Shown: one piece after another, positions 4,494 to 44,837 of the stretch | How the letters are laid out: each line of letters opens with the position of its first letter | How positions within the stretch are numbered: the stretch's first letter is position 1 | Origin: Candidatus Latescibacterota bacterium | GTDB lineage: Bacteria > Latescibacterota > UBA2968 > GCA-2709665 | DNA: 64,000 bases | Assembly: GCA_965219455.1 (NCBI GenBank) | Contig: OZ244744.1 | Location: forward strand, 3,168,001-3,232,000 | Reading direction: 5' to 3' | Notes under the pieces: generated by a model | What the model saw: only the letters and a program-made list of their open reading frames with translations | The model's database searches: none | What the model was told of the DNA's origin: nothing | Translations under genes and position numbers: made by a program

Positions 4494-4521
4494 CGGGCTA
4501 AACCAGGCGTCACGGGAATCA

Positions 4522-4682
4522 GTGCAACCACAAGGGTTGCCCCTGCGGTGTTCGCGGTCTGGCGCGGGGAAGTGTTGGGGCGGATTTGGAAGGAATACCC
4601 AACCGTTGTTATTTTCATAGGTGATGCCATGCCACGTCGGTGAAGACATTATAATTGTATGGGCGCCCCTTTGTGGGCGCCC
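4522..4682. repeat. REP pair (GCAACCACAAGGGTTGCCCCT + GTATGGGCGCCCCTTTGTGGGCGCCC) with a RAYT-derived linker; left border of the island
   Basis: Palindromic 25-26 bp units matching the REPs around the RAYT at 19.2-20.9 kb. Confidence 0.85.
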
Positions 4683-4708
4683 GATCTGTTTTTTCCTCGC
4701 ATGATGGC

Positions 4709-4740
4709 TTGACACTGTTCCCAAAAGTAATTACTATAAT
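4709..4740 (+). promoter_or_regulatory. sigma70-type promoter of mazEF
   Basis: TTGACA-17 bp-TACTAT (overlapping TATAAT); GTAATTAC palindrome is a possible operator. Confidence 0.65.
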
Positions 4741-4785
4741 TGCATAACTACCTTCACGATTTTCATCCAATCAGAGGTCAGCAAT

Positions 4786-5028
4786 ATGGCAATCAGGGAT
4801 GTCAAACTTATCGCGATAGGCAACTCCAGGGGTATTCGACTACCGAAAGCGCTGCTGCAAAAATATGGATGGGGGGACTCGCTCGTAATGGAAGAGACTG
4901 AACGAGGGGTTCTGCTGTATGGGAAAGATCGGAATAAGCTGACCTGGAAGGAAACATACCGCGAGATGGCCGCTGAGAATGAAGATTGGAGCGACCTCGA
5001 CGCAACGGTCGCTGATGGCCTGGACTGA
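4786..5028 (+). CDS. AbrB/MazE-family antitoxin
   Basis: KLIAIGNSRGIRLPK swapped-hairpin motif; stop overlaps the toxin start. Confidence 0.92.
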   Translation: MAIRDVKLIAIGNSRGIRLPKALLQKYGWGDSLVMEETERGVLLYGKDRNKLTWKETYREMAAENEDWSDLDATVADGLD

Positions 5029-5360
5029 TGTCCGCATATCCCCGCCGATATACGATATATTTGGCCGACCTCAATCCCGCCGTAGGTGGAGAGATTCAAA
5101 AGGTTCGCCCGGTTGTAGTGGTCAGTCTGGATGTGATGAATCAGTTTCTGGATACGGTTGTCGTGTGTCCGCTTACCACATCTCTGCATCCTCATTGGCG
5201 GGGTAGAATGCAGATCCAATGCGCGGGCAAAGAGGCTGAAATTGCTGCGGACCAGATTCGCACCATTAGCAAACAGCGACTAAAGCGCCGAATTGACAAC
5301 CTGTTCGGCGACGACGCGGCGCAGCTCCGCCGCCTTATCACCGAGATGTATGGGGAATAG
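5028..5360 (+). CDS. PemK/MazF-family endoribonuclease toxin
   Basis: YLADLNPAVGGEIQKVRPVVVVS, CPLTT, DQIRTISKQRL. Confidence 0.93.
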   Translation: MSAYPRRYTIYLADLNPAVGGEIQKVRPVVVVSLDVMNQFLDTVVVCPLTTSLHPHWRGRMQIQCAGKEAEIAADQIRTISKQRLKRRIDNLFGDDAAQLRRLITEMYGE

Positions 5361-5620
5361 CGAAAAACATGGTAAGATGTAGATTCAGCTGGTGCAGTAA
5401 GTGCGGTTGCCCGGACTGAGACATGGGTTCTCCTGAGTAAAAAGGCCTGTGTATTCCGCAACATATCTCGTAAGTATATTGGCTTGGACGATTCTTCGAC
5501 TGGATTGGCCGGTCCTCATTGATCGAGGATCGGCTGTTTCTGTAAATTGCCAGCGTAAGTTCCCTTGATTTCAATGAGAATATAGACTATATTGGACTAT
5601 ATCTGTTGAGAGGAGGACAG

Positions 5621-5905
5621 ATGATCACGCAATATCCCAAACCACGCCGCGTCTGGACGGTCGCAGAGGCCAAGGCACGGTTATCTGAAATCCTTCGTCT
5701 TGCCGAAGCGGAAGGCCCGCAGCGCATTGGGGCGCGGAAGGCTTTCGTTGTGGTGCCCGAGCGGGTGTGGGAGGCTCAGTCTTCACCCCGCAAACCGCTT
5801 GGCCAGTGGTTGATCGACAACATGCCGCGCGGCGTGAATCTCAAAATCCCTGGCGATAGAACGTCCCGGCGGGAGATTCCGTTCGACGACGGAGGAACGG
5901 GGTGA
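5621..5905 (+). CDS. Phd/YefM-family antitoxin (VapB partner)
   Basis: WTVAEAKARLSEILRLAEAEGPQRI; GTGA overlap with the PIN gene; repeated GACTATAT upstream. Confidence 0.88.
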   Translation: MITQYPKPRRVWTVAEAKARLSEILRLAEAEGPQRIGARKAFVVVPERVWEAQSSPRKPLGQWLIDNMPRGVNLKIPGDRTSRREIPFDDGGTG

Positions 5906-6321
5906 GCGGTTTTCTCCTCGACACCAACGTGGTCTCCGAACTGACCAGGAGCGTGCCGGACTCGCAGGTTATGGCATTCCTGGCTGAGCAGGACGACTTA
6001 TGGCTGTCGGCGATGGTAGTGCATGAGTTGGAATTTGGTTTGCAACTATTGCCTCACGGGCAACGTCGCGACGTATTGCACTCGGTGCTGTCAGGGTTCG
6101 TCACGGATTACCAGGACCGCATCCTGCCTGTGGACAGAATGGGAGCAAAGTGGGCGGCCTACTTTCGTGCACAGGCGCGTCGATCCGGACGGGTGCTGGA
6201 CCTGGGGGATGCGCTCGTTGCCGGAACTGCCCGGGCTCATGATCTGTCGGTTGCAACCTGGAATGTTGCGGATTTCAATGGCCTGGACGTCAACGTCACC
6301 AATCCCTGGGAACCGCGGTGA
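5902..6321 (+). CDS. vapC: VapC PIN-domain toxin
   Basis: LLDTNVVSE, ELEFG, GDALVAGTA, ATWNVADF. Confidence 0.92.
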   Translation: MSGFLLDTNVVSELTRSVPDSQVMAFLAEQDDLWLSAMVVHELEFGLQLLPHGQRRDVLHSVLSGFVTDYQDRILPVDRMGAKWAAYFRAQARRSGRVLDLGDALVAGTARAHDLSVATWNVADFNGLDVNVTNPWEPR

Positions 6322-6355
6322 CCGGGAAAGTGAGGGCAGCCGCAACGGAAAACCA

Positions 6356-6536
6356 GGGCAACCACAAGGGTTGCCCCTACGACGCCATGTTTGGGCGCGG
6401 GTGAATGTGTTGTACTGGCGGACTTGGGCGTTACGCCGAACTGCCTGCCTGCATTGACATAGAGGCATTTTTCGCAATGCCTGACCGAAATTGTGCGTGA
6501 TTTTTCGATTTGTAGGGGCGCCCCTTGTGGGCGCCC
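6356..6536. repeat. REP pair with a RAYT-derived linker
   Basis: GGGCAACCACAAGGGTTGCCCCTAC at 6356-6380; GTAGGGGCGCCCCTTGTGGGCGCCC at 6512-6536. Confidence 0.9.
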
Positions 6537-6627
6537 TGCCTTTTTTGTCCCACCAAAGGCTTGACATCATCCGATAAAGTAACTATATGACTTCTGTAAC
6601 AGACGGAATCCAAGAAAGGTCGACTGA

Positions 6628-6870
6628 ATGGCAACGTGGGATGTCAAACTGATCGCTATCGGCAACGCCAGAGGAATTCGTCTTCCCGAAGCGCTACTAA
6701 AGAAATACGGCTGGGGCGACTCGCTGGTCCTGGAAGAGACTGAACATGGCATGGTGCTACGCGGCAAAGAACGAAATAAGCTATCCTGGAAGGAAACCTA
6801 CCGAGCCATCGCTGCCGATAATGAGGACTGGAAGGATCTCAACGCGACGGTCGCCGATGGCCTGGATTGA
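6628..6870 (+). CDS. Second AbrB/MazE antitoxin copy (orphan)
   Basis: 63/80 aa identical to 4786-5028 by manual count; TTGACA at 6561. Confidence 0.9.
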   Translation: MATWDVKLIAIGNARGIRLPEALLKKYGWGDSLVLEETEHGMVLRGKERNKLSWKETYRAIAADNEDWKDLNATVADGLD

Positions 6871-6914
6871 TGTCCGGATTTCCCGGGCGAAATGCCATCT
6901 GCTCCACCGAGTGA
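6870..6914 (+). pseudogene. Stub of a mazF paralogue
   Basis: Same TGATG coupling; MSGFPGRNAICSTE* aligns with MSAYPRRYTIYLAD and then stops. Confidence 0.6.
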
Positions 6915-6949
6915 CGGAGATGTACCGGGAAAGCGGTTCCGGTCGCGAA

Positions 6950-7075
6950 CTGTGGAAGACAGAACGATGTCTTGACGGCCACTTGTGTCACACAACGTCA
7001 GTTGTAGGCCAATATCGACGAAAAATGGCCGACAAAATACGTTGATGGCAATGACTGACCGTCAACCGTCGATTC
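6950..7075 (+). repeat. ~125 bp imperfect direct repeat, copy 1
   Basis: ttgacggccact...aaaatggccgacaaaatacgttgatggcaatg recurs at ~7505-7632. Confidence 0.8.
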
Positions 7076-7328
7076 TGCCGGGTGCTCTGACGACGGCTAT
7101 AGAATCGAACCTGAAACGACCCCGGTTTGGAGGCGGAATATCTCGTACGGCGGCGGAGAGAAGATCAGGCACTGTGCGTCGAAGTGGCACAACTGCGCCG
7201 TGTCTTCTCTGAAATTTGCGGCAAATGGCGATTACTAAGGCGACGGCTGCGGTCTCAACCGATTCCCATCTATCTCTTTGGATACATTTTTCGCCTTTCT
7301 CCACCACATTCGCAGGTTCATTTTCCGT

Positions 7329-7412
7329 GTAGGGGCGCCTCTTGTGGGCGCCCGGCCTTCCAGCGACACGGTGCGCGCCTGAATATAAACCAGGGCAACC
7401 ACAAGGGTTGCC
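7329..7412. repeat. REP pair (REPIN-like)
   Basis: GTAGGGGCGCCTCTTGTGGGCGCCC at 7329; truncated GGGCAACCACAAGGGTTGCC at 7393. Confidence 0.85.
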
Positions 7413-7504
7413 TGTCTGCCGCCTGCCTCGTCTGCTTCAGCAGGCAGGACAGGCAGGCCCCTGCGGGGGATGGGTGGACTCGATTTTGGGATTCGCGTAA
7501 ACGT

Positions 7505-7632
7505 TGCGGAAGGCAGAAAAGTGCTTTGACGGCCACTTATGTCCCACAATATCCCTTGTCGGTCAATATTGAGAGAAAATGGCCAACAAAATGCGTTGAT
7601 GGCAATGGCTGTCCGACAACGACCCTCGATTC
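7505..7632 (+). repeat. ~125 bp imperfect direct repeat, copy 2
   Basis: Colinear with 6950-7075. Confidence 0.8.
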
Positions 7633-7818
7633 CGTGGGATCTGTAGAGGGGGGATGTAGAAAGTGGTAGAGATCCCCGGGGCAATTTAATGAATCAGTCC
7701 GGAAATCAGGGATTGGAATTGAAGCACAGATGATTTCGCCGATTCAGTGGAGATCCTGACGTAAGAAAAAGATTCTATTTGTAGCTGGAACACAAAAGGG
7801 AACTGAGGAGAGTGCTCT

Positions 7819-9015
7819 ATGGAAGGCAAGAGGTTCATTCGGTCGATTCGGCTAGACAACTTATTATCCTATGGTTCCTGGGAACGAGAGTTCGATCTAG
7901 AGCCCTTAAACGTCCTTATCGGCCCTAACGCTTCCGGAAAGTCGAACTTGATCGAAGCGCTCTCGCTTCTCGCAGCAGCGCCTACCAGGGATCTACAGGC
8001 ACCAATTCGGGAAGGGGGAGGCGTTCGCGATTGGTTATGGAAGGGCGCCACCCGACTATCCACGGCGACCTTGGACGTTACCATTGAGTACCATGGTGAA
8101 CAACCGCTCAGGTACAGGCTATCGTTCACGGAAAGCGCGGCGCGTTTCGAACTCAAGGATGAGGCGGTCGAGAGCGAAAGACCTACGCCAGGCAACGAAG
8201 ACCCGTATATCTTCTATCGATACCAGGAGGGCAGGCCGGTGCTCAACGTCTTCACACAGGAGGAGTCCCGGTTTAATCGGCGCCTCACACGTGAAGACGT
8301 GCATGCCGAGCAGTCGATACTGTCTCAGCGACGAGATCCCGACTCCTATCCGGAATTGACGTACTTGGCTAGCAGATTCGAGCGTATGCGCTTTTATCGT
8401 GAGTGGAATCTCGGGCGCTCTGGACCGCCGCGCCTTCCGCAGCAGGCCGACCTCCCGCAGGACAGCCTGCTTGAGGACGCCTCTAATCTCGGCTTTGTGC
8501 TAAGCAGTTTGTTAAATCAACCGCCTGTCAAACGCCAGATACTGGAACAATTGAGAATCTTTCATCCTTCGGTCGAGGATATTCTTGCCACATTCAACAG
8601 CGGTACAGTTCAGTTATTCCTCCACGAAGAAGGCTTGTATCATCCTGTGCCGGCCACTCGCCTCTCTGACGGATCCCTGCGCTTTCTATGTCTTCTCGTC
8701 GTGCTCTGTAATCCCGATCCGCCGCCTGTTGTCTGTATCGAGGAGCCGGAGATCGGCCTGCACCCGGACGTGATCCCGGAAGTTGCGGCGCTTCTGGTGA
8801 AAGCGTCTTCCCATAGCCAAATATTCGTCACAACACACTCTGACATTCTCATTGACGCGCTCACGGATACTCCGGAGGCCGTGGTTGTTTGCGAGAAATC
8901 GGACGGTGCGACGCAACTTCGCCGTCTTGACGCCGACGAACTCAAACCGTGGCTCAAAAAATACCAACTTGGCGAGCTCTGGGTAAAAGGGGAAATTGGA
9001 GGGAATCGGTGGTGA
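7819..9015 (+). CDS. ABC-type AAA_21/AAA_15 ATPase
   Basis: Walker A GPNASGKS, signature LSDG, Walker B/D-loop CIEEPEIGLHP, H-loop TTHS. Confidence 0.92.
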   Translation: MEGKRFIRSIRLDNLLSYGSWEREFDLEPLNVLIGPNASGKSNLIEALSLLAAAPTRDLQAPIREGGGVRDWLWKGATRLSTATLDVTIEYHGEQPLRYRLSFTESAARFELKDEAVESERPTPGNEDPYIFYRYQEGRPVLNVFTQEESRFNRRLTREDVHAEQSILSQRRDPDSYPELTYLASRFERMRFYREWNLGRSGPPRLPQQADLPQDSLLEDASNLGFVLSSLLNQPPVKRQILEQLRIFHPSVEDILATFNSGTVQLFLHEEGLYHPVPATRLSDGSLRFLCLLVVLCNPDPPPVVCIEEPEIGLHPDVIPEVAALLVKASSHSQIFVTTHSDILIDALTDTPEAVVVCEKSDGATQLRRLDADELKPWLKKYQLGELWVKGEIGGNRW

Positions 9016-9649
9016 AGATCAAGCTTTATGCCGAAGGAGGAGGTGGTAGCAAGGCGCTCAAAAGGGCGTGCCGCAGGGGTTTTCGCATATTCATTGAGAA
9101 GTCGGGGTTGAAAGTACGGATGCCCGAAATTGTAGCCTCCGGCAGCCGCGGGAACGCGTACGAGGACTTTAAGACGAGACATCGTAATACGACAAAAATG
9201 AAGGCGCGCTGCTTCTGGTGGACGCTGAAAGGGCGGTAGGGGAAACGGGGCCGTGGCAACACCTCAAGGACAGTGATGGCTGGGACCGCCCCGACAGCGC
9301 AACGGACGACCAGTGCCACCTTATGGTGCAAGCAATGGAATCATGGTTTCTGGCGGACCGTTCGGCCCTTGAGGAATACTATGGCCAGGGCTTTCAGGAA
9401 ACCGCGCTCCCTTCGAATCCGCAGATTGAGCAAGTTCCCAAAGGTGACGTCCTCCACGGCATTCGCCGGGCTACCGACAGTACCACAAAAGGCCGTTATG
9501 ACAAGGGATCCCACAGTTTCGAGATCCTGGCGACAATAGACCCTTCAAAAGTGACGAGTGCGTCGCCCCATGCGAAACGATTTATCGAAACACTCTTCAA
9601 GTTTTCAGGAAGTGGAACTGCGGCGGATAAGGATCCTTCGAGCGGGTAA
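9012..9649 (+). pseudogene. DUF4276-family (TOPRIM-like) protein, frameshifted
   Basis: KLYAEGGG N-terminus in one frame and LLLVDAE...MVQAMESWFLAD...YDKGSHS in another; shift near 9180-9200; span 638 nt. Confidence 0.8.
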
Positions 9650-9705
9650 CAGGTGGATAAATCGCACCGTTAAACTGGTTTCCTTGAAATAGAGAACCGA
9701 TAAAT

Positions 9706-12504
9706 ATGCGACTATCGTGGAATGAAATCCGCGCCCGCGCCGCCAAGTTTGCGCAAGACTGGATGGACAGGGGCTACGAGAAGGGCGAGACACAGCTCTT
9801 CTATAGCGAGTTCTTTAACATATTCGGGATGCCTGTTCGCCGGGTGGCTGCATTCGAGCAACCCGTCAAACTACTCGGCGACAAGCGTGGCTTTATCGAC
9901 CTGTTCTGGAAAGGCGTCCTGCTCGTCGAGCAGAAAAGCGCAGGCCGCGACCTCGTTGCGGCCAAGACCCAGGCCCTCTCCTACTTCCCGGGACTCAAGG
10001 ACGTCGACCTTCCACGCTACATTCTGCTGAGCGACTTCGCAACGTTTGAGCTATACGACCTCGACGAAGACGAAAGCGTCGCCTTCGCCCTGGCCGATCT
10101 ACCTGATAACATTGAAAAGTTCGGCTTTATTCTCGGCCTCCAGAAGCGCACCTTCAAGGATCAAGACCCGGTAAACATTCAGGCGGCCGAGCGTGTGGGC
10201 CTTCTCCACGACGCGCTGGCGGCTTCCGGCTACACCGGCCACGACCTGGAGCAATTCCTCGTTCGGATCGTCTTCTGCTTCTTTGCCGACGACACCGGTA
10301 TCTTCGAGCCGCGCGACATCTTCCTTGACCTGTTGGAAAATAGGACGAACGAAGACGGCTCAGACCTGGGTGGCTGGCTGGCGCAATTGTTCCAGGTGCT
10401 CGACACGCCTGACGACCAGCGCGTCAACACCCTCGACGAAGATCTTGCCCGCTTCCCCTACGTTGACGGGGACCTGTTTCGCGAGACATTGCGCATCCCG
10501 TCGTTCGATGCCCAAATGCGCCAGAGGCTGATTGATGCTTGCCATTTCAATTGGTCGGCTATCTCTCCGGCCATCTTCGGCTCGCTATTCCAGTCTGTGA
10601 TGGACGAGGACGAACGCCGCGCTAAGGGCGCGCACTATACGACCGAACAGAACATCCTCAAGGTTATCGAACCCCTGTTCCTCGACGATCTGCGCGAGGA
10701 GTTCCAACGCCTGAAGTCGCGCCGCGACACGCGTCGCATTCCCGAACTGATCGCCTTCCAGCAGCGGTTAGGGACGTTGCGCCTCTTTGATCCGGCCTGC
10801 GGCTGCGGGAATTTCCTCATCATTGCCTACCGCGAGTTGCGGGCACTGGAAATCGAGGTACTAAAGGAAATTCGCCCGAAACGCCAGGTCGACGCCTTTG
10901 CAGAGTTGCTTTCGGTCGTAGATGTCGATCAGTTTTACGGGATTGATTTGGGGGAGTTTCCGGCGCACATCGCAGAGGTCGCATTGTGGATGATGGACCA
11001 CATTATGAACAACCGGCTGAGCCTGGAGTTCGGCCAGACGTACGTGCGCATTCCGCTGGAGAAATCCCCGCACATCCGGCATGGCGACGCGCTCGAGTTT
11101 GATTGGAGCGAATTACTGCCGCCGGAGGAATGTTCCTACGTGCTCGGCAATCCCCCATTTGTGGGCGCGAAGTTTCAATCGACCGAGCAGCGCGAACAAG
11201 TGCGCGCCATCGCTGCCCTAGGCAAGAGCGGCGGCACGCTCGACTACGTTACCGCGTGGTTCATCAAGGCTGGGAAATACGTTCAGGATAGCGCGGCGCG
11301 GATCGGTTTCGTGGCGACTAATTCCATCACGCAGGGCGAACAGGTTGCACAACTCTGGCCAATCCTATTCGAACGCCATAAACTGGATATCGCCTTTGCA
11401 CACCGTACGTTTGCCTGGGGATCGGACGCGCGTGGTATGGCGCACGTTCACGTGGTGATTATTGGATTGGCCAAACGGGACGATGCACTGCGACAGAAGC
11501 GGTTGTTTTCATACGATAGCCCGAAAAGCGATCCGCAGCAGAGCCAACACACCGCCCTCTCACCCTATTTGTTCGATGCAAGTGGTTTGACCGATTCGGG
11601 AGTTGTCGTAAGGGGGGCACATCTACCGATCAATGGACTACCAAGGCTCATCATCGGCTCCAAGCCCATCGATGGCGGCCATTATATCTTTAAGGTCGAT
11701 GAACGCGCCACTTTCCTTCGCGAAGAGCCGGGCGCTGAGCCTTATCTCCGACCTTTCGTGGGAAGCCGCGAGTTTTTGCAGGGCGGAGAACGTTGGATAT
11801 TGCATCTGGCGGAAGCGCCGCCGCACGTGCTCAAGACGCTACCGAAAGTACGGGAGCGCATAGCGGCCGTCCGGGAATATAGGCTGGCAAGTAAGAGCAA
11901 GCCGACCCAGGCACTCGCCATGACGCCGAAGCAATACCACGTAAACGTCATTCCAACTGAGCCGTTCTTGGCCGTGCCAAAGGTGAGTTCCGAACGGCGC
12001 GAGTATGTGCCGATCGGTTGGCTGGAGCCGCCGACGATCCCAAGCGATCTTGTCTTCGTTCTGAACGACGCGACAAAGCCATTGTTCGCGTTGCTCACCT
12101 CCGCTATGCATTTTAGCTGGCTGCGTCACATCGGCGGACGTTTGGAGAGCCGTTACCGCTATTCGATCGGCCTTGTATACAACACCTTTCCTCTGCCGCC
12201 AGCCCCGCCGGAACGGATGCAACGCCTCGAGCCCCATGCGGAAGCCGTCCTCAGTGCTCGCGCTAACCATCCAAAGGAGACGTTGGCGGACCTGTACGAC
12301 CCCGACCTCATGCCTACCGACCTTCGCAAAGCACATCAGGTCCTGGACCGCGCCGTCGATAAGCTGTACCGACGGAGCGGCTTCGCCTCCGAGCGCGATC
12401 GTGTGGAACATCTATTGGGTCTTTACGAGAAAGTGGTCGCTCCGGTGACGGCCATGGCCAAGCCGAAGCGACGGCGGCGGCGACGAAGGGATGGAAAGGA
12501 ATAG
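9706..12504 (+). CDS. MmeI-like Type IIL/IIG restriction-modification enzyme (N6-adenine MTase + nuclease)
   Basis: N-terminal GFIDLFWKGVLLVEQKS, GAHYT, DPACGCGNFL, GNPPF, VSSERREY, YNTFP, LADLYDP. Confidence 0.93.
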   Translation: MRLSWNEIRARAAKFAQDWMDRGYEKGETQLFYSEFFNIFGMPVRRVAAFEQPVKLLGDKRGFIDLFWKGVLLVEQKSAGRDLVAAKTQALSYFPGLKDVDLPRYILLSDFATFELYDLDEDESVAFALADLPDNIEKFGFILGLQKRTFKDQDPVNIQAAERVGLLHDALAASGYTGHDLEQFLVRIVFCFFADDTGIFEPRDIFLDLLENRTNEDGSDLGGWLAQLFQVLDTPDDQRVNTLDEDLARFPYVDGDLFRETLRIPSFDAQMRQRLIDACHFNWSAISPAIFGSLFQSVMDEDERRAKGAHYTTEQNILKVIEPLFLDDLREEFQRLKSRRDTRRIPELIAFQQRLGTLRLFDPACGCGNFLIIAYRELRALEIEVLKEIRPKRQVDAFAELLSVVDVDQFYGIDLGEFPAHIAEVALWMMDHIMNNRLSLEFGQTYVRIPLEKSPHIRHGDALEFDWSELLPPEECSYVLGNPPFVGAKFQSTEQREQVRAIAALGKSGGTLDYVTAWFIKAGKYVQDSAARIGFVATNSITQGEQVAQLWPILFERHKLDIAFAHRTFAWGSDARGMAHVHVVIIGLAKRDDALRQKRLFSYDSPKSDPQQSQHTALSPYLFDASGLTDSGVVVRGAHLPINGLPRLIIGSKPIDGGHYIFKVDERATFLREEPGAEPYLRPFVGSREFLQGGERWILHLAEAPPHVLKTLPKVRERIAAVREYRLASKSKPTQALAMTPKQYHVNVIPTEPFLAVPKVSSERREYVPIGWLEPPTIPSDLVFVLNDATKPLFALLTSAMHFSWLRHIGGRLESRYRYSIGLVYNTFPLPPAPPERMQRLEPHAEAVLSARANHPKETLADLYDPDLMPTDLRKAHQVLDRAVDKLYRRSGFASERDRVEHLLGLYEKVVAPVTAMAKPKRRRRRRRDGKE

Positions 12505-12780
12505 TGTGGAAATATATGGAGTAAAATTCAGCTCACGAGCCTTGACCGGATAAAGAATCAAGACTACAATAGCATATACATTTGAGATTCCTTCCTACAC
12601 GAGGGCTACCAACGGAGATTGGTATTCTAATGCTAACGTTTTCCGTAAGACACCGGATGTCGCAACACATTCGGAATATTTGGTTTTTGTAATTTAAGAT
12701 TCGACAATCTTCCCCCGTTATATTCAAGGTTCCTGAAGGGGAAGAACAAACCCCGAGTCGTTACGGACGGACATTTTGTT

Positions 12781-14772
12781 ATGAAACTACAAAATACCCC
12801 GACTTCAAGGTCTGAACGTAAATACAAGATGACGGTTGCTGGCCAGTTGTTCAAACATCTGGGTTTGCAGATGTACTCTGGGGCAGTACCTGCAATTTCA
12901 GAACTAATCTCAAACGCATACGACGCCATGGCGAGAAACGTATGGATTGAACTTCCGACTCACACGTCCATCACGTCAAGTGACGAGATTGTAGTGAGGG
13001 ACGATGGACATGGCATGAGTTTTGACGAATGTAACTCTCGCTACTTGTCGGTAGGGAGAGACCGACGAATAAAGCACGATGAATGGACAAAGGAGTACCG
13101 TGATTTGAGTTCCCGGAAAGTTCAGGGAAGAAAGGGCATTGGCAAACTTGCTGGTTTCGGGATAGCAAATTTGATTGACGTCCGAACAATTAAGAGTGAG
13201 AAAATAGCGCATTTTCGAATGGATTATGACGAATTAACAAGAAGCTCGAATTTCGCCGATACGGAAGGATACGCACCCAAATCATTGCCAGATGACGGTA
13301 GACAAACCGACGATCCGGCTGGCACAACGGTTAGACTATCGCGGCTTAAGCTCAGTCGATCGATTAACGAAGAACAATTCAAAAAGAGCATTGCCAGGCG
13401 ACTTCTGGTCATTGACGAGTCCTTTACCGTGCATGTAAACGATACACAAGTGTCGAGACAAGAGATTCCATTTCAATTCAGATTTCCGAAAAGTGCCGGC
13501 GCTTGGCAGACCGATGAACTTTCAAATGGCCAACAATTTCACTGGTGGGCGGGTTTCTGCGATGGTACGATACCGGATGAAGAACAACGCGGCTTTGTTG
13601 TTTACGTGCGAGGGAAGTTGGCACAAACGCCTTGGTTTTTCGACCTTAGTGGTGGCGTTTGGGGACAACATGGCATGCAATATTTCACGGGCGAGATCAA
13701 GGCAGATTTTCTTGATGACAGTGTGGATTTGATTGCCACGGACAGGGGTACAGTTCGGTGGGAGGATCCCGCGGCCGTACCTTTGAAGGATTGGGGGCGA
13801 AAAAAGATCAGGGAGTTACTCGAGACTTGGTCGAAGAAAAGACGCGAAGCGAAACTCAAGAGTCCCAAAGTGATGGAGTTTCTGTCCCAAGCGGAGAAAC
13901 TACCTGAAAGAGAACGTCAGATTTTTGCAAAAGTGGTTGACCGTATTTGCGCTATACCTCAACTCGATAAAGACCAAGAGGGCAGGGATATAGCCGATGA
14001 ACTTGTGGAGTTTGCCTACAACGCATTGACAAATCTGAGTTTTCTTGATGCAATACGACGGTTGAACGCAGCATCTCCAAATGAAATGGACAGATTCAGT
14101 GAAGTGCTTTCCGATTGGGATATCATCGAGCTTGTAAATACGGCGCACCTCGTTAAGGGTCGGGTCGAAATCATCCGAAAATTCAAACAAATGATCGACG
14201 ATAGAGTTCCTGAAAAACCGGACATGCAGAACTACGTACGTGACCATCCATGGCTAATCGATCCGAAATGGACCGCTCTTGCGCACGAGAAAACACTCGA
14301 CAGGTTAATTGCAGATGAATTCGGAATCAAAACGTCAGATGGCAACGAAGGCAGGAGGCGACTTGATTTCTTCTGCCTTGGGGATAGGTATAAGACAGCG
14401 CACGTTGTAGAGACAAAGCGACCTGGAGAAATAGTTGGACGACAGGAATGCGATCAACTTCGTGATTATGTTTTGTTTCTTCAAAGAAAGCTCCAACATG
14501 AGGCTGACGAAGAAAACCGAAGAACGACAGTGCGAGGTCTGTTAATAGCCGATCGCATTCGACCCGAAGATGAGATTCACGCACAGACGCACCAACAGGC
14601 CGGAACATTCGATATTCGCACCTGGGATAATCTGCTAACCACAACGGAAACATTGCATGAAGAATTCCTAAATGTGGTTAGAACACGCGTTCCGTCAGAT
14701 GATCCTAGAATGAGGAGCTTGTTGGACGAATCAATCAATGCACCGATCGATTCAAACGAAGATCAGGGATGA
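12781..14772 (+). CDS. GHKL (HATPase_c_3/MORC-like) ATPase with a C-terminal PD-(D/E)xK-like nuclease region
   Basis: ELISNAYDA, RDDGHGM, GRKGIGK, GTTV; C-terminal RLDFFCL...VVETKRP. Confidence 0.85.
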   Translation: MKLQNTPTSRSERKYKMTVAGQLFKHLGLQMYSGAVPAISELISNAYDAMARNVWIELPTHTSITSSDEIVVRDDGHGMSFDECNSRYLSVGRDRRIKHDEWTKEYRDLSSRKVQGRKGIGKLAGFGIANLIDVRTIKSEKIAHFRMDYDELTRSSNFADTEGYAPKSLPDDGRQTDDPAGTTVRLSRLKLSRSINEEQFKKSIARRLLVIDESFTVHVNDTQVSRQEIPFQFRFPKSAGAWQTDELSNGQQFHWWAGFCDGTIPDEEQRGFVVYVRGKLAQTPWFFDLSGGVWGQHGMQYFTGEIKADFLDDSVDLIATDRGTVRWEDPAAVPLKDWGRKKIRELLETWSKKRREAKLKSPKVMEFLSQAEKLPERERQIFAKVVDRICAIPQLDKDQEGRDIADELVEFAYNALTNLSFLDAIRRLNAASPNEMDRFSEVLSDWDIIELVNTAHLVKGRVEIIRKFKQMIDDRVPEKPDMQNYVRDHPWLIDPKWTALAHEKTLDRLIADEFGIKTSDGNEGRRRLDFFCLGDRYKTAHVVETKRPGEIVGRQECDQLRDYVLFLQRKLQHEADEENRRTTVRGLLIADRIRPEDEIHAQTHQQAGTFDIRTWDNLLTTTETLHEEFLNVVRTRVPSDDPRMRSLLDESINAPIDSNEDQG

Positions 14773-14775
14773 ACA

Positions 14776-15882
14776 ATGAACAAAGAAAGACGAATTGCGA
14801 TTGATCTGTTCGCCGGGTGCGGCGGATTGACAAAAGGTATTCGCGATGCTGGGTTCAACGTCTCAGCAGCCGTTGAGGTTGATTTCGATGCGGCGCGGAC
14901 CTACCGATGGAACCACCCACGAACGCGCCTGCTGAGAAAAGACATCCGTGAAGTGTCCGCTTCGGATCTCAAACGGGAAACCGGCAACGAGCATATTTCG
15001 CTTCTAGCCGGTTGCGCTCCCTGCCAGGGATTCTGTTCTCTGACGAGCAAGTACGACAAGCCAGACCCTCGAAACGAACTTCTCCTTGTTATGGCCAAGA
15101 TTATCGGAGAGATTCTTCCCCGTACAGTAATTATGGAGAACGTCCCCGGCGTCTTAGGCCGGGGAAAGGCAATTTTCGATAAATTCATTGAAGTTATCTC
15201 CAAACTTGGATACCAGTACAATTGGCGTATTGAGCAGATGGCCGACTTTGGTGTACCTCAATCACGTCGTCGGTTGGTTCTCATAGCCGGACTTGGATTC
15301 GAGGTTCCCTTTCCTGAACCAACCCATGCCCGTGCCAAGGGCGAAATATGCGGTCTGCAACCATGGAACACGGTAAGGCAAGCCATTGGCCACATAGATG
15401 CGCCGATCACGTTAAAGGCAGCCTGGCGCAATGATAGCCCGGAATCTAATGACTGGCATGTGGTCCGAGATCTTCAACCACAGGTCAAGAAACGACTGGA
15501 AGCTGCGGAACCAGGGGAGACATGGTTGGCAATTGATGAGTCGGTGCGTCCTAAATGTCATCGAAGCGGCTACAGGGGCTTTACAAATACGTATGGAAGA
15601 ATGGCTTGGGACCAGGTCTCTCCTACTATAACTGGTGGGTGTACGACGGCATCCAAAGGCCGGTTCGGGCACCCGGATAAATCCAGATATACAATCTCCG
15701 TACGAGAAGCTGCCTTACTTCAGACGTTCCCCGAAGATTACAGATTTGCTACGGATAAGATGGACACCGTATGTGACCTTATAGGCAACGCGGTCCCACC
15801 TCTATATGCAAAACTGGCCGCTACGGAAGTCCTTTCTGCAATTCGCAAGAATCCGGACGAACAAGGTGAAATGCGACCATGA
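14776..15882 (+). CDS. C5-cytosine DNA methyltransferase
   Basis: [45 protein letters not shown]. Confidence 0.95.
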
Positions 15883-16334
15883 GTCGATGGCCCGGCGACG
15901 CTCGGCAAGAACGTACGACGTTTGGTGGTTTGGTTCGCGGGGAACTGATGGCTCGCGTGCGTAGCAAGGGCAATGAGACAACTGAAAAGCGCCTTGTACG
16001 TCTCTTTCGCGAGTGGCGTTTAACTGGATGGAGACGAAACCAATCGCTTCCAGGTCGACCGGATTTCGTTTTTTCGAAAGAAAAGACCCTCGTCTTTGTG
16101 GACGGCTGTTTTTGGCACGGGCACAATTGCAGAAACCTAACGTCAAAGACAAACCAGAAGGCGTGGCATGACAAAATTGCACGAACCCAAGCCCGGGACC
16201 GACGGAACAACCGTCTGCTTCGCCAGTTGGGATGGAAAGTCATACGTATTTGGGAGTGTCGTCTGGCAAAGGCTCCAGACCTCTGCATGCGTAGGATAAA
16301 ACGCAGACTCGAGGAAAGTAGAGGAACAACATAG
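15879..16334 (+). CDS. vsr: Very short patch repair endonuclease
   Basis: [36 protein letters not shown]. Confidence 0.93.
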
Positions 16335-16451
16335 AACTTGAAATTCGATCAGGAGACTGGGAGGCTTGTCGCTACTGCTTATGATCTGGACCGGGACAGC
16401 ATTGATTTGCGGATTGAATCGCGTGGATCGATCGAGAGAAGGGAGAATCCG

Positions 16452-17591
16452 ATGAGGGTCAGCATTCGAGACAAGGGGCGCTTGAGCGAGGTCTCGCCTG
16501 CCGCCCTGTCGGCCTATGCTCGTGCAGCGGGCTGGACACGGACGGACAGCTACGGGGACTCTTCAGACGTTTATGAATCGGACGGATTGCCGGAGATTAT
16601 CGTGCCGCGCACCCAACAACTGGGAGATTATGCTAACGTGGTGTCGCAACTTATCGATATCTTCGCCGACGTGGCAGGTACCGACGAACTTTCTCTCTAC
16701 CGCGACCTGGTTTCCTCCGACCGAGACGTCATTCGCGTTCGGGGCGACGAAGGCGGCGATGGGGCCGCATCCGCAAATGAAAGGATTAAACTTGCAGGCA
16801 GCGCACGTGGTATGGTACTGGCAGCCGCCTGTTCGCTGCATGATCCGCGGTCGGTCTATCGCGCTGCCGCTGACAAGGAGGCCATGAACTTTGTCCGCAA
16901 ATTACGAATGGGGCAATCCGAGCAAGAATGCCTTGTTGTAACCCTGCTGACCCCTGTCGTGTCGCCACCCATACAACAGTCCTTCATTCAGGATTCGGAG
17001 CACAACGAAGACCCGATTGAGCGCAAGATGACAAGGCGTCTGGCTTCCGCACTGCGAGCCGCCCGGCATGCAACGGAACAAACAATGGGAGGAAAAGTCG
17101 ACGCTTTCTTGCAGGCCGTGGACAACGGTGTAAGCGCCAATCTGTGCGAAGCGCTTGTGAGATTGATCGAAGCATCCACGGCGCTGGAAGTCAGTTTGAC
17201 CTGGGCCCGCACGCATCCGATGAATACGGCGCGTGAGGTCGTTCATTTTGGCAAGGGTGATGCGCCCATCCTCCGTGAGGCCGCGCGGCTGTTCCGTGAT
17301 CGCGGACCGAAACCGGATGTGCTGCTATTCGGTTCTGTTCAACGGGTCAAGAGGCGCCAGGATGAGACGTACGGAACAATCACTTTGCGAGTATACGTTG
17401 ACGGGCAAATTCAGTCAGTCGTAGCCGCCCTCACCCAGTCCGATTACGAGAGAGCCATTGAAGCTCATCAACAAAAGGCACCGGTCATTGTGGCCGGCGA
17501 CCTTGACCGCATTGGTCAACGGTGGCGCTTGTTGAATCCGCGCGTTGTTGCCGTCATTCCGCAAGAGGATATGCAGGAAGAGGGAGAATGA
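16452..17591 (+). CDS. Hypothetical protein (379 aa), defence-island associated
   Basis: GGGAGA RBS + ATG; long ORF; beta-rich OB-fold-like C-terminus (inferred); ATGA overlap with the next gene. Confidence 0.75.
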   Translation: MRVSIRDKGRLSEVSPAALSAYARAAGWTRTDSYGDSSDVYESDGLPEIIVPRTQQLGDYANVVSQLIDIFADVAGTDELSLYRDLVSSDRDVIRVRGDEGGDGAASANERIKLAGSARGMVLAAACSLHDPRSVYRAAADKEAMNFVRKLRMGQSEQECLVVTLLTPVVSPPIQQSFIQDSEHNEDPIERKMTRRLASALRAARHATEQTMGGKVDAFLQAVDNGVSANLCEALVRLIEASTALEVSLTWARTHPMNTAREVVHFGKGDAPILREAARLFRDRGPKPDVLLFGSVQRVKRRQDETYGTITLRVYVDGQIQSVVAALTQSDYERAIEAHQQKAPVIVAGDLDRIGQRWRLLNPRVVAVIPQEDMQEEGE

Positions 17592-17827
17592 GGTCAATCG
17601 ATCCAATCCATTCCCTGGCGTTTTCGATTCAAGCAAATCCTGGCGTGTATGCTATCCTTGTGGGCTCAGGGGTATCACGGTCGGCGAAGATTCCCACAGG
17701 ATGGGAGATAACTCTCGACTTGATTCGCAAGTTGGCAAAACTCGGCAACGAGACTTGCGAACCCGTTCCGGAATGTTGGTATCTGGAGAGATTCGGTAAA
17801 GAGGCGTCGTATTCCGATCTCCTTTGA
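17588..17827 (+). pseudogene. Truncated SIR2-family (SIR2_2) protein
   Basis: YAILVGSGVSRSAKIPTGWEI SIR2 N-terminal motif; stop after 79 aa. Confidence 0.8.
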
Positions 17828-17975
17828 TGTCAAGGCTGCATTCGGTGATTTGTGAGCATCGGTTGGATGATCGCCTGGTCGGTGCGATTGCAGGCCCCTT
17901 TGGTTTGCGATCTCGCCCCAATGCGGAATCTCCATTGATTTCGGTGTCTGACCGATCAAGGGAGAAGTTATTTCA

Positions 17976-18956
17976 ATGACACCTGAAAACTTGGGAAAAC
18001 TGGAATCAGTTGACCTTCGTGAAGTATGGCGGAACGAAGCTGACAATTTTACGCCATGGTTGGGGACGCAAAGGAACCTGGACGATCTCGGTGAAACGCT
18101 CGGTATGCAGATAGAGTTTCAGGCGTTTGAGGAAGCTGTTGGTCCATATTCGGCGGATATATTGTGCCGAGACATTGATGATGATAGTTACGTTGTTATC
18201 GAAAACCAGCTTGAGGAAACGGACCACGACCACCTCGGGAAACTTCTCACGTATGCGGCGCATTTCAAAGTGTCAACCGTGGTCTGGGTCGCAAAGACAT
18301 TTACCGAACAACACCGAGCGGCCGTTGACTGGCTGAATGAGACCTCGGCCGAGGGGACTCAGTTCTTTGCGTTGGAAATTGAGGTCTGGCGAATCGGTGA
18401 GTCCGCGTTCGCGCCGAAATTCAATATGGTGGCCAAACCGAACAACTGGACGAAGGGAGGTAGATCAACTGCCGCCAGTTTGACGGAGACGCAGCGAGTT
18501 CAGCTTGAATTCTGGAAAGGATTCCAAGACCACGTTTCCCGGCATGGACAGCAGATCAAACTCTCTGCGAGTCCGAAAGCGAAAACCAGTATGGCCGCAG
18601 GGGGCTTGGGGCGTACGGGTTTCCTCCTCGCCGCTGTGGCCTCGACGTATTCCGAAACCAGGGGATGGAACGGTCAGGAACTAAGGGCGGAACTAAGCAT
18701 CAGCCGGGGAGAACTCTCGGGCCGATTTCACGACTTTCTCCAATCCGAAAAGTCCGAGATCGAACGGGAGATGGGCGGAGAGTTGAACTGGTACAATCCG
18801 GAGGATTCGAATGCCTGTAGAATTTACTCTCGCAAAGACGTGGAACTATACGATCCGGATGCCCGCAATGAGCAGTACACTTGGCTTCTGGAGCAACTCG
18901 AGAGTTTCCATCGAGTCTTCGCGGAGCGGATCCAGAAGTTGGAACCTGCGCCCTAA
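17976..18956 (+). CDS. DUF4268 domain protein with an N-terminal NucS-like PD-(D/E)xK domain
   Basis: LREVWRNEADNFTPWL, ADILC, VVIENQLEETDHDHLGKLLTYAA. Confidence 0.85.
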   Translation: MTPENLGKLESVDLREVWRNEADNFTPWLGTQRNLDDLGETLGMQIEFQAFEEAVGPYSADILCRDIDDDSYVVIENQLEETDHDHLGKLLTYAAHFKVSTVVWVAKTFTEQHRAAVDWLNETSAEGTQFFALEIEVWRIGESAFAPKFNMVAKPNNWTKGGRSTAASLTETQRVQLEFWKGFQDHVSRHGQQIKLSASPKAKTSMAAGGLGRTGFLLAAVASTYSETRGWNGQELRAELSISRGELSGRFHDFLQSEKSEIEREMGGELNWYNPEDSNACRIYSRKDVELYDPDARNEQYTWLLEQLESFHRVFAERIQKLEPAP

Positions 18957-19176
18957 AGACAATTGGTACGACCACCTTCGCAAAAAGTATCAGGACCTTC
19001 AACTACTGTCAATCCGGTCAATCATGTGAACGTGTCGCCTCATATGCAAAGCGACAATTTACTCAATACGTTGAGTATTTTTACTCAATGCATTGAGTAA
19101 TTCGTTGAATTTGCGTCCAAATGCCACGGAACTGCCGCGCCGTCTGCATAAACGAAGGCCACCGCCACGCAAACAA

Positions 19177-19808
19177 GGGCAACCACAAGGGTTGCCCCTA
19201 CGCGGTACAGGGTATTCCGCTGGGCGTGAGATGCGCTTCGACTATCGATTCATCGTATTTGTCATATTTATCGCAATGCCCAGCCCTATGTATGGCATCA
19301 ACACAATTGTAGGGGCGCCCCTTGTGGGTGCCCTGCCTCGCCGCGACACGACGGTCACCGTCGCAGACCCGCGGGCCGCCGCGTGGATTGCCCCAAGGGG
19401 GTACGGGTATTCGATTTGGAGTGAGTTGCCCAACTGGCATCGAACCAGCACAGTTGGCATATTTGTTGCAATGCACAATCAAGTCCACCTGATGATTGAA
19501 ATTGCAGGCGCGTCCCGTGGGCGCCCGGCCATCCAAGACGCAATGGTCGCCGCAACGAATACGCGGGCAACCACAAGGGTTGCCCCTACAACATCACGGT
19601 CGGTCGTGGGTTAATGAGGTGGAGTGGCGGCGGCGAATTCGGGCAAAATGCCGAACGGATTTTCATCCGATGAATTGAAAACATTCGTCTCAATGCTTCA
19701 CCACATGCGCGGAATTATTCCATTTGTAGGGGCGTCCCTTGTGGGCGCCCGGGGTTAAAGAGAAGCGATGCGTGCCTTAACATAATCCAAAACAACCACG
19801 GGGGTTGA
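19177..19808. repeat. REP cluster upstream of the RAYT
   Basis: REPs at 19177, 19309, 19565 and 19726; degenerate copies near 19371, 19504 and 19791. Confidence 0.88.
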
Positions 19809-20434
19809 TCCGACAGGTGAACGGCGTGTACGATCCGGAAATCCATCATCGCCGGTCGATGAGACTGAAGGGATACGACTATTCGCAGGCAGGGGCGTAC
19901 CTTGTTACCGTTGTCGCACATGGACGGATGACGCATTTCGGCGATGTGGTTAAGGGTCGGATGCAGTTGAACCCGGCCGGAGAAATGGTCCAACGAATAT
20001 GGATGGAAATGCCCAATCGATTCCCACCTATCATTATGGACGAATTTATCGCCATGCCAAACCACGTTCATGGAATCATCATCCTGGCAGGTGCGGGCAT
20101 TGCGGGCGCCCCAACACCTAACGATCGATCGGACATCGGTACAAGAAAAAATGCAACCACAGGGGTTGCCTCTACATCGGATGGGCGCACGAGACTGGGG
20201 GATGTGGTAGGTGCATTTAAATCATTGACAACATTGGAATATACGCGTGGTGTGCGCGACAAGAACTGGCCGCCGTTTCAGGGACGGTTGTGGCAGCGGA
20301 ATTTCTATGAACATATCGTTCGGACCGACGTGTCATTGCAGCAATATCGCAAGTATATAGTTGACAATCCGGTGCAATGGCCATTTGACCGTGAGAACCC
20401 GATGGCCGTAAGTCCCAGGTCGCACTCGCTATAG
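19805..20434 (+). mobile_element. REP-associated tyrosine transposase (RAYT/TnpA-REP, HUH Y1 family); true start may be GTG at 19827
   Basis: HHRRSMRLKGYDYS, HUH motif MPNHVH, LWQRNFYEHIVR, catalytic YIVDNP; flanked by REPs. Confidence 0.92.
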
Positions 20435-20474
20435 CCAACGATATCCCGGCCATCACCTCAATACGCACAGACGA

Positions 20475-20851
20475 GGGCAACCACAAGGGTTGCCCCTACG
20501 CGGTACAGGGTATACAATTTCCAACCAGATCGGATGAATGATCGAAATTGTAGGGGCGCCCCTTGTGGGCGCCCGCCTGCCTCAGTCGGAAATGCCACGA
20601 CCATAGAAACCAGGGCAACCACAAGGGTTGCCCCTACACGGTACGGGGAATACAATTTACAACCGGGTGCAATGAATGATCGAAATTGTAGGGGCGTCCC
20701 TTGTGGGCGCCCGGCGTTTCGGCGAAGCAATGCGTGTCTGAACATAAACCAAAGCAACCACAAGGGTTACCCCTACACGGTACGGGGTATGCAATTTCCA
20801 ACCAGATCGGATGAACCATCGAAATTACAGGGGCGCCCCTTGCGGGTGCCC
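20475..20851. repeat. Tandem REP array (BIME-like), 3 units of 138-139 bp; right border of the island
   Basis: REP-B at 20475/20613/20752 and REP-A at 20550/20688/20827, with a conserved ~50 bp linker. Confidence 0.9.
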
Positions 20852-20891
20852 GGCCTTCCGATTATCTTTTTAGAAAAACGGAGGAGATCCG

Positions 20892-44812: not shown

Positions 44813-44837
44813 GGGCAACCACAAGGGTTGCCGCAAC
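44813..44837. repeat. Solo REP of the island family
   Basis: GGGCAACCACAAGGGTTGCCGCAAC. Confidence 0.75.

Follow-up and report, generated by a model that had tools for sequence, protein, structure and literature searches.

The closest described counterparts of the locus analysed here, an array of repetitive extragenic palindromes (REPs) around a gene for a REP-associated tyrosine transposase (RAYT, or TnpA_REP), are the bacterial interspersed mosaic elements (BIMEs) and REPtrons of Escherichia coli. As described by Ton-Hoang et al. 2012 (PMC3333891), these consist of two REP variants in alternating orientation, joined by linkers of discrete types and lying beside tnpA_REP, with a copy number that varies between relatives. 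According to the same source, E. coli TnpA_REP binds a REP and makes two kinds of cut, one within the CTAC of an inverted REP and the other far off in linker DNA, whose ends it then recombines. From this an excision and integration model for BIME diversification was proposed; cutting at such sites would capture flanking DNA. A second counterpart is TnpA_REP subclass 2.4 (Bertels group 4), which the main text of Quentin et al. 2018 (PMC6006769, Table 1) characterises by the motifs NH[IFV]H, WQ and YIxNNP and by REPs inserted in frame between HuH and Y within the transposase gene. In marine picocyanobacteria, truncated tnpA_REP fragments were reported to be interspersed with prochlorosin (procA) clusters (Laurenceau et al., 10.1101/2020.03.09.984088), in a preprint whose causal claim was later withdrawn by its authors. 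The locus studied here lies in a 64,000-nt stretch of the genome of a Candidatus Latescibacterota bacterium (GenBank assembly GCA_965219455.1, contig OZ244744.1, positions 3,168,001 to 3,232,000), hereafter called the window. Six stretches of decayed RAYT-like sequence in this window are the linkers of a BIME-like family of composite units (an inverted REP-B, a linker of 50-136 nt and a REP-A), which together form a REPtron around a RAYT gene that is probably of subclass 2.4.

The window array shares with the E. coli arrays, as described in that source, the two alternating REP variants, the discrete linker types, the position beside the transposase gene and the variation of copy number between relatives. 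It differs from them in that one of its linker types derives from the transposase's own coding sequence, in that tail-to-tail spacers are replaced by whole gene cassettes and in that beyond the locus, over the remaining 47.7 kb of the window, there is a single REP. From the main-text account of subclass 2.4 it differs in that the REPs inside the gene are decayed, whereas the units outside it keep perfect REPs together with a relic of the HUH-coding segment. The procA case likewise has RAYT fragments standing among accessory genes at conserved spacing and read as the trace of a transposase, but those fragments belong to subclass 2.1, are mostly C-terminal, face the cargo genes and were found without detectable REPs. 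Chromosomal integrons also present co-oriented small cassettes, many of them toxin-antitoxin (TA) genes, separated by species-homogeneous imperfect palindromes beside the gene of a strand-processing enzyme, and the window array resembles them in that layout. The likeness ends with the units, which lack attC architecture, with the promoter-like sites of the cassettes, with an island free of units and with tandem units free of cargo; moreover, no IntI-type tyrosine recombinase was found by Pfam and PADLOC among the open reading frames (ORFs) at 2.0-21.9 kb, where the HUH RAYT was the only strand-transfer enzyme. REP doublets forming hairpins (REPINs), reportedly two inverted REPs linked to a single-copy RAYT, differ from the window units, in which compensatory stem changes favour separate hairpins and the sequence between the REPs is a gene relic.

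In-frame REPs in subclass-2.4 RAYT genes (PMC6006769, main text) and the BIME/REPtron architecture are thus already known, and the gene-derived linker is a modest new variant of them. Full-text literature searches and look-ups of terms in PMC6006769 and PMC3333891 turned up no BIME linker derived from the HUH-coding segment of a RAYT gene, and TA or defence cassettes between such units were found neither in these sources nor in PMC5581495. Copies of adjoining coding DNA outside the gene were likewise not met with in the passages of PMC6006769 consulted; its supplementary figures S6 and S10 may bear on the point.

Composite units with a transposase-derived linker

Two REP types made up the array. 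REP-A, a GTAG head followed by the hairpin GGGCGCCC, was found with at most three mismatches at 6512, 7329, 19309, 19726, 20550 and 20688 (6 matches against 0 expected), with degenerate copies at 4657 and 19504, so that a REP was present at all six positions named in the preliminary description. REP-B, which is REP-A inverted, ends in CTAC and carries compensatory changes in the stem, had eight true matches in the window. The compensatory changes point to selection acting on separate hairpins, whose predicted DNA folding energies were -8.5 to -11.8 kcal/mol for four canonical REP-A and -9.3 kcal/mol for four canonical REP-B copies. Every REP was on the + strand, as was the RAYT gene, and further degenerate copies were visible on reading the sequence. 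Apart from a solitary intergenic REP-B at 44813-44837, 24 kb from the RAYT locus, all of them fell within 4522-20851.

The order of the REPs alternated B then A. Where a REP-B followed a REP-A tail to tail, the two started a constant 61-65 nt apart and were separated by a spacer of ~38 nt ending in AACCA, a position that was elsewhere taken by a gene cassette. From a REP-B to the following REP-A (head to head, CTAC...GTAG) the linkers had the discrete lengths listed in Table 1. At U1 and U2, which follow upstream genes, the REP-A with its T-run was terminator-like. REP-A and REP-B differed from each other by compensatory changes, and so did the REP-B stems of different genomes, with the pair CAACC/GGTTG in the window and CACCC/GGGTG at the related loci L001, L024 and L003. 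These relatives also carried same-orientation REP-A arrays with a period of 66-67 nt and a conserved 42-nt linker, a third linker type that was absent from the window.

To place the linkers we used, besides the window itself, 80 RAYT loci of relatives with 20 kb per locus, the source genome standing outside this set. In an ungapped, REP-anchored comparison, the 110 nt 5′ of each REP-A were matched to the 110 nt 5′ of the REP inside the RAYT gene, with 18256 window positions as the null (mean 27.1, sd 4.7, maximum 46 identities). U3, U4, U5 and U6 scored 57, 53, 54 and 54 of 110, all above the null maximum, while U1 (32/110) and U2 (36/110) were not significant because of indels. Gapped local alignment of the linkers alone, with REPs excluded, to the N-terminal half of the gene gave z values of 3.7, 3.0, 14.5, 6.0, 4.9 and 5.6 for U1 to U6 against 300 dinucleotide shuffles, all alignments being colinear on gene nt 19975-20084, and the control comparison with the C-terminal half gave z values of -0.9 to 0.8. 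The fragments therefore aligned better than shuffled controls, although the scores of U1 and U2, weak individually, were reached by some shuffles. For these two, U2 matched a REP-free profile of the canonical linkers at E 3.2e-6, and U1 clustered with the canonical units in the tree described below (support 95/83).

The match was also seen in the reverse direction. A linker-only profile built from nine canonical linkers, with no REP, was searched against the 80 loci and the window (1.36 Mb, E ≤ 10), and 47 of its 54 matches outside units coincided, in + orientation, with the part of a RAYT gene that encodes HUH, with E values of 4e-6 in L002, 2e-4 in L041, 7.5e-4 in L003, 2.8e-3 in L001 and 0.023 in the window. 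A whole-unit profile ran colinear with the gene, beginning at codon ~51 and reaching the in-gene REP-A. Sequence comparison thereby confirmed the homology of each of the six stretches to RAYT codons ~51-95, flush at the REP and with the same junction as in the gene. This was what the preliminary description had read from decayed peptide strings 5′ of the REPs. Five of these strings could be recovered; the sixth, that of U2, was obtained by translating 6459-6486, which aligned to gene nt 20036-20063. The 75-125 nt of linker adjoining REP-A are a non-coding relic of codons ~51-95, and the direction of descent is from gene to repeat because the segment is the conserved catalytic core in all homologues. 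The repeated module is accordingly supported as a composite with a RAYT-gene-derived linker and not a plain REP or REPIN, in line with the earlier proposal of a fragment-plus-REP unit.

The linkers of the short units S1-S3 were related to those of the U4/U5 type (z up to 6.7) and had no detectable match to the gene. A stretch of the S2 linker (20650-20674) resembled 20355-20379 near the RAYT 3′ end with z 4.7 (300 shuffles) in one of 18 tests, a likeness that could be due to chance or to capture of a second piece. For the initial 30 nt of the linker, the segment of the gene that follows its REP-B and the gene start were considered as well, and both were rejected as a source, the word GGTCG being all they had in common. 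When extra copies of three RAYT pieces were sought by tblastn and single-sequence nhmmer in the 80 loci and the window, copies of the HUH piece only were found in the window and L001 alone; the units of L024 and L003 were missed by both searches and detected by profile only. The other extra matches were second paralogues in L002, L041, L064, L065 and L073 and small C- or N-piece copies in L005, L014 and L071. L064 had been a candidate for a relic of the N-terminal half only, which was rejected because its second paralogue is complete.

The RAYT gene probably starts at the GTG at 19823, judging from comparison with L001 and L003. Its product carries NHVH (residues 86-89, encoded from 20063), LWQRN and YIVDNP. 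N86, H87 and H89, as well as Y184, I185, N188 and P189, were invariant across 26 homologues (alignment A2), and homologues numbered 2513 at E ≤ 1e-5. The protein matched NCBIfam NF047646 (REP_Tyr_transpos) at E 2.5e-13 and 50.2 bits, under the cut-off of 80 and over its C-terminal half only, and Pfam Y1_Tnp at 16.6 bits, under the cut-off of 23; it is a relative and not an equivalog of the E. coli enzyme. By its motifs and in-frame insert, rather than by placement in the published tree, it is probably of the TnpA_REP subclass 2.4 type. NHVH and WQ match the motifs of that subclass, and YIVDNP comes near to its Y motif, YIxNNP, but has D in place of an N; the insert between HuH and Y is of variable length, made of REPs and frame-keeping, and GTAG-headed REPs flank the gene.

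Inside the gene, the REP-A-like stretch agreed with REP-A at 19/25 positions (hand count) and stood directly after the HUH-coding segment, where a REP remnant had indeed been noted before; the REP-B-like stretch agreed at 21/25 positions. Their hairpins were predicted at -3.4 and -6.0 kcal/mol, respectively. In-frame REPs of this kind have already been published for subclass 2.4 (PMC6006769, main text), and REP-like peptides were translated at the post-HUH site in many homologues here, the 26 aligned proteins spanning 186-360 aa. An exact 13-mer from the insert recurred outside it in 44/78 loci, mostly within 300-520 nt of where the insert starts, i.e. near the gene ends.

Table 1. Units, coding features and cassettes of the RAYT locus in the window, with corresponding arrays at related loci
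Feature	Coordinates	Strand	Composition
U1	4522-4682	+	REP-B 4522-4546, 110-nt linker with internal deletion, REP-A-like 4657-4682, then T-run
Cassette U1-U2	4683-6355	+	MazE/MazF and Phd/VapC(PIN); Pfam
U2	6356-6536	+	REP-B, 131-nt linker, REP-A, then T-run; diverged canonical unit
Cassette U2-U3	6537-7255	+	Orphan MazE and decayed remains; Pfam
U3 module	7256-7412	+	73-nt gene-like fragment, REP-A 7329-7353, 39-nt spacer, truncated REP-B 7393-7412; no upstream REP-B
Accessory/defence island U3-U4	7413-19176 (systems 7819-18956)	+	11.7 kb; Pfam, PADLOC
U4	19177-19333	+	REP-B, 107-nt linker, REP-A
U5	19388-19526	+	Degenerate REP-B, ~92-nt linker, degenerate REP-A 19504-19526
U6	19565-19750	+	Canonical 186-nt unit: REP-B, 136-nt linker, REP-A; directly upstream of RAYT gene
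Degenerate REP-B	19791-19815	+	Just upstream of likely RAYT start; -4.1 kcal/mol; canonical at same position in L003, L024
RAYT/TnpA_REP gene	19805-20434	+	Longest ORF, 209 aa
Source-type segment	19955-20086	+	RAYT codons ~51-94 including HUH motif; linkers homologous to it; whole-unit profile colinear up to in-gene REP
In-frame intragenic REP doublet	20087-20177	+	REP-A-like 20087-20111, 39-nt spacer, REP-B-like 20151-20177; both decayed
S1-S3 short units	20475-20851	+	Downstream of RAYT; each REP-B, 50-nt linker, REP-A; 138-139-nt period
184-187-nt units	L001 5197, 6375, 8218, 9591; L024 9304, 9526, 10653; L003 9393; window U6, U2		REP-B, 136-nt linker (131 nt in U2), REP-A
Same-orientation REP-A arrays	L001 8379-8537, 9752-9842; L024 9687-9845, 10812-10903; L003 9554-9844		

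Age of the unit family

The nearest RAYT loci by amino acid identity were L001 (80%, Ca. Latescibacterota), L024 (75%), L003 (74%, gene cut by the contig end) and L002 (60%). L001 was syntenic with the window, with a DAO-GcvT gene on one side and a homocysteine S-methyltransferase (HMT) gene on the other at 83-84% nucleotide identity. The L003 record is labelled Gemmatimonadota, yet its RAYT locus (74% aa identity, 90% nt identity in the HUH segment), its units and part of its defence island matched the Latescibacterota loci, which suggests mis-binning or transfer.

Canonical units recurred in these genomes (Table 1). The window, L001, L024 and L003 each had one immediately 5′ of the RAYT gene. 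U6, the window copy at this place, was 81.7% identical to L001 9587-9777, and short units with 50-nt linkers lay 3′ of the RAYT gene in L001 too. The linkers of the canonical units of the four genomes were 67-89% identical to one another against 42-58% to any RAYT gene, and U4 and U5 were 59% identical. U3 showed the opposite pattern, with 47-56% identity to the genes against 35-45% to other units.

A maximum-likelihood tree (112 columns, 33 rows) grouped the canonical units with U1 (95/83) and paired U4 with U5 (97/89), with U3 on a long branch, while the four resident genes formed a clade (97/91) with every unit outside it. Holding all 14 units together cost 0.04 in log-likelihood (lnL) and was not rejected (approximately unbiased test, p 0.448), whereas forcing the six window units and the window gene into one clade cost 75 lnL and was rejected (p 1e-40). 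The unit family predates the split of the four related genomes, and copying of the units from the resident gene is rejected on this tree.

Accessory genes between units

All genes between units in the window were on the + strand, like the units and the RAYT gene. The 11.7-kb island held HEC-01 A (AAA_21) and HEC-01 B (DUF4276), a type IIG restriction-modification system, PDC-M02B, PDC-S11/DUF4268, and a HATPase_c_3 restriction-endonuclease-like protein with a C5 methyltransferase and Vsr; no REP unit was found inside this multi-system island. Parts of the island recurred upstream of RAYT in L003 and L024. The U3 module that precedes it was bracketed by a 116-nt direct repeat (79% identity) at 6951-7066 and 7505-7620, with related copies in L003 at 440-555 and 1743-1884.

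In L001 the cargo between units comprised an RDD-family gene, the same MazEF + Phd/VapC cassette and a DUF2442/DUF4160 pair, and the syntenic loci of the window and L001 differed by whole cassette-plus-unit modules. The cassette at 4683-6355 was homologous to L001 6532-8269 at 80.8%, the homology beginning and stopping inside units: over window 4653-6407 it ran from a REP-A to just past a REP-B. U2 together with the orphan MazE (6285-6890) was a decayed duplicate of unit plus MazE, 69.6% identical to L001 6323-6927, and the MazF frame behind it appeared truncated. The ~75 nt after REP-A, including a promoter-like site, were common to both loci even where the downstream genes differ. After U1 this site had 10/12 matches; counts in the promoter scan were not above those in shuffles.

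Units thus border accessory modules at the window locus, as the preliminary description had suggested and as L001 also showed. The suggestion did not extend to every unit or every accessory gene, since U4, U5 and U6 followed one another head to tail without cargo between them and the large island had no internal unit.

Origin of the units and competing explanations

We propose that before the genomes diverged a RAYT gene gave rise, on one occasion or on very few, to a copied-out stretch with the intragenic REP doublet as its boundary. RAYT, bound to the in-gene REP, would make one cut at the CTAC head of the inverted REP and a second some way off in the adjoining coding sequence, and join the ends again, so that a piece running from codon 51 through REP-A and spacer to REP-B would land in a neighbouring REP array. 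The units would then have spread by unequal crossing-over with one another, and their present role would be that of REPs generally, as hairpins, terminators and recombination-prone direct repeats between which cassettes are duplicated, lost and swapped. That the units multiply and are lost inside the array, and that cassettes occupy the tail-to-tail spacer, is what the loci show. We hold the descriptive part of this account with high confidence, and regard the account as a whole, with units, origin, spread and role taken together, as probable by a modest measure; origin by RAYT acting on its own intragenic REP is the most likely source of the units, put forward tentatively at a little short of an even chance and by analogy with the E. 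coli enzyme.

RAYT-driven capture of flanking DNA is favoured on three grounds. The period of the long units (REP-B, 136-nt linker, REP-A and 38-nt spacer) equals one uninterrupted part of the gene that starts at codon ~51 and runs up to the CTAC of the REP-B inside it. Two mirror cases, in unrelated lineages, place in-gene REP sequence with the start of the C-terminal half outside the RAYT gene: L014 10606-10790 (spacer, REP-B and ~110 nt of the C-half) just behind the gene, and L005 863-991 (REP-A, spacer, REP-B and ~55 nt of the C-half) just before it. The third is the cutting behaviour of E. coli TnpA_REP outlined above.

Several points weigh against this origin. The founding junction is unreadable, as the 8 nt after CTAC have no match in the gene leader or among the codons preceding codon 51. 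The borders of the L014 copy are not at C|T dinucleotides, so that nothing ties the events to the cleavage specificity of RAYT; the E. coli C|T cleavage rule, tried at the borders of L014, L005 and U3, gave no consistent fit. Intermediates such as a full N-terminal half between REPs or a circle junction were not seen in the 81 sources. U3 resembles the genes more closely than it does the remaining units, and its left border differs from theirs; given U3, more than one capture, or gene conversion, is possible. The tree is based on 112 columns, and the evidence is drawn from 64 kb of this genome and 20 kb of each relative.

Host recombination alone could have produced the same arrangement, with no role for RAYT: the REP doublets upstream of and inside the gene would have crossed over unequally and so duplicated the N-terminal half, after which the extra copy decayed and a deletion removed codons 1-50. 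The two doublets are direct repeats of ~88 nt, the product (REP-B, N-half, REP-A) has the right order, and entire modules do become duplicated in tandem as the array grows. This route nevertheless needs a second, lucky deletion that ended 8 nt from the CTAC head; no full-length copy of the N-half was found in the 81 sources, the 8 nt after CTAC are unlike the gene leader, and the C-half flanks of L014 and L005, with one border at a REP edge, are explained less simply. We consider it the main alternative, possible but doubtful, holding something like a third of our belief.

A more ambitious proposal takes RAYT and its 186-nt units, in this Latescibacterota-like clade, for a cassette platform run by a single-strand recombinase, an HUH-driven analogue of the integron in which the units serve as sites for capture, duplication and exchange of TA and defence cassettes, and the linker relic records sites spawned from the enzyme's own intragenic REP. 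Cargo-free tandem units and a unit-free multi-system island argue against a system with one site per cassette, and we think the proposal, with its account of the relic, unlikely.

The preliminary description had offered a scar reading, in which the resident RAYT gene yields a fresh fragment with its REP each time the intragenic REP receives cargo, much as with attC sites or the duplication of CRISPR repeats. That units border TA and defence modules, that L001 differs by cassette-plus-unit modules and that units, RAYT gene and intervening genes all share one strand would suit it. It is contradicted by the rejected clade of window units and window gene and by the derived features that units share across genomes. 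It also conflicts with units that lack cargo (U4-U6, S1-S3 with linkers of the U4/U5 type, and those at 9304 and 9526 of L024), with the island's several systems without internal units, with cassettes that have promoter-like sites of their own, and with the intact window gene, whose intragenic REP contains no cargo. Fragments without a link to gene gain, which had been named beforehand as telling against the scar, therefore occur within the window itself, and we regard this reading as very improbable.

Still less credible is a function of the linker itself, as a small peptide mimicking RAYT, as a decoy or extended binding site, or as an antisense or leader regulator of RAYT expression. The constant place of a canonical unit upstream of RAYT speaks for it, as does the block of HUH codons, which is the best-kept part of the homology (14-17/22 nt), but the latter is explained by the invariant gene side. 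Four-fold-site identity between window and L001 was 62% for GcvT, 70.5% for HMT, 78% for RAYT and 73-77% for MazEF, and the positionally equivalent linkers U6 and L001_d were 75% identical; the linker thus diverges at about the neutral rate while the REP hairpins are nearly invariant. The higher values of RAYT and MazEF than of GcvT and HMT may mean that the array ancestor is younger than the backbone or that the array was exchanged. Stops or frame breaks in the gene-equivalent frame occurred in U1, U2, U3 and the L024 units, so that the fragments are not intact ORFs and a conserved small ORF in the linker was ruled out, and the second His of HUH was lost in 13/14 units. RNAalifold on 12 units found only pairing between REP-B and REP-A and no linker helix with covariation, and an Rfam scan of 4300-21200 at E ≤ 1 returned only a sub-threshold SprD match (25 bits, gathering score 100, E 0.13). 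With colinear homology, lost coding capacity and neutral divergence, the relic behaves as a decayed partial gene duplicate.

Chance or shared composition, to which the weakness of U1 and U2 and the lack of a significant gene match in S1-S3 might be put down, has a negligible claim, four units having exceeded every null position, the C-half having scored near zero and the linker profile having landed so largely on HUH-coding segments.

Debate over the origin and diversification of REP and BIME arrays still draws on in-vitro studies of a single E. coli enzyme. The window array carries a datable marker, a piece of transposase coding sequence joined to the REP at the gene's own junction, which shows that REP-flanking DNA can travel along when REP units form and that such a unit can outlast the splitting of species and go on multiplying with nothing but its hairpins conserved. 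The intragenic REP of subclass 2.4 is probably a source of array units and not just a tolerated insertion, and the window repeats are a fossil of array building rather than the scar of each gene arrival. With TA and defence genes lying between REP units in a compact locus that is fixed in place and variable in content, the system offers a tractable case for weighing RAYT against plain homologous recombination as the driver of gene turnover at REP arrays.

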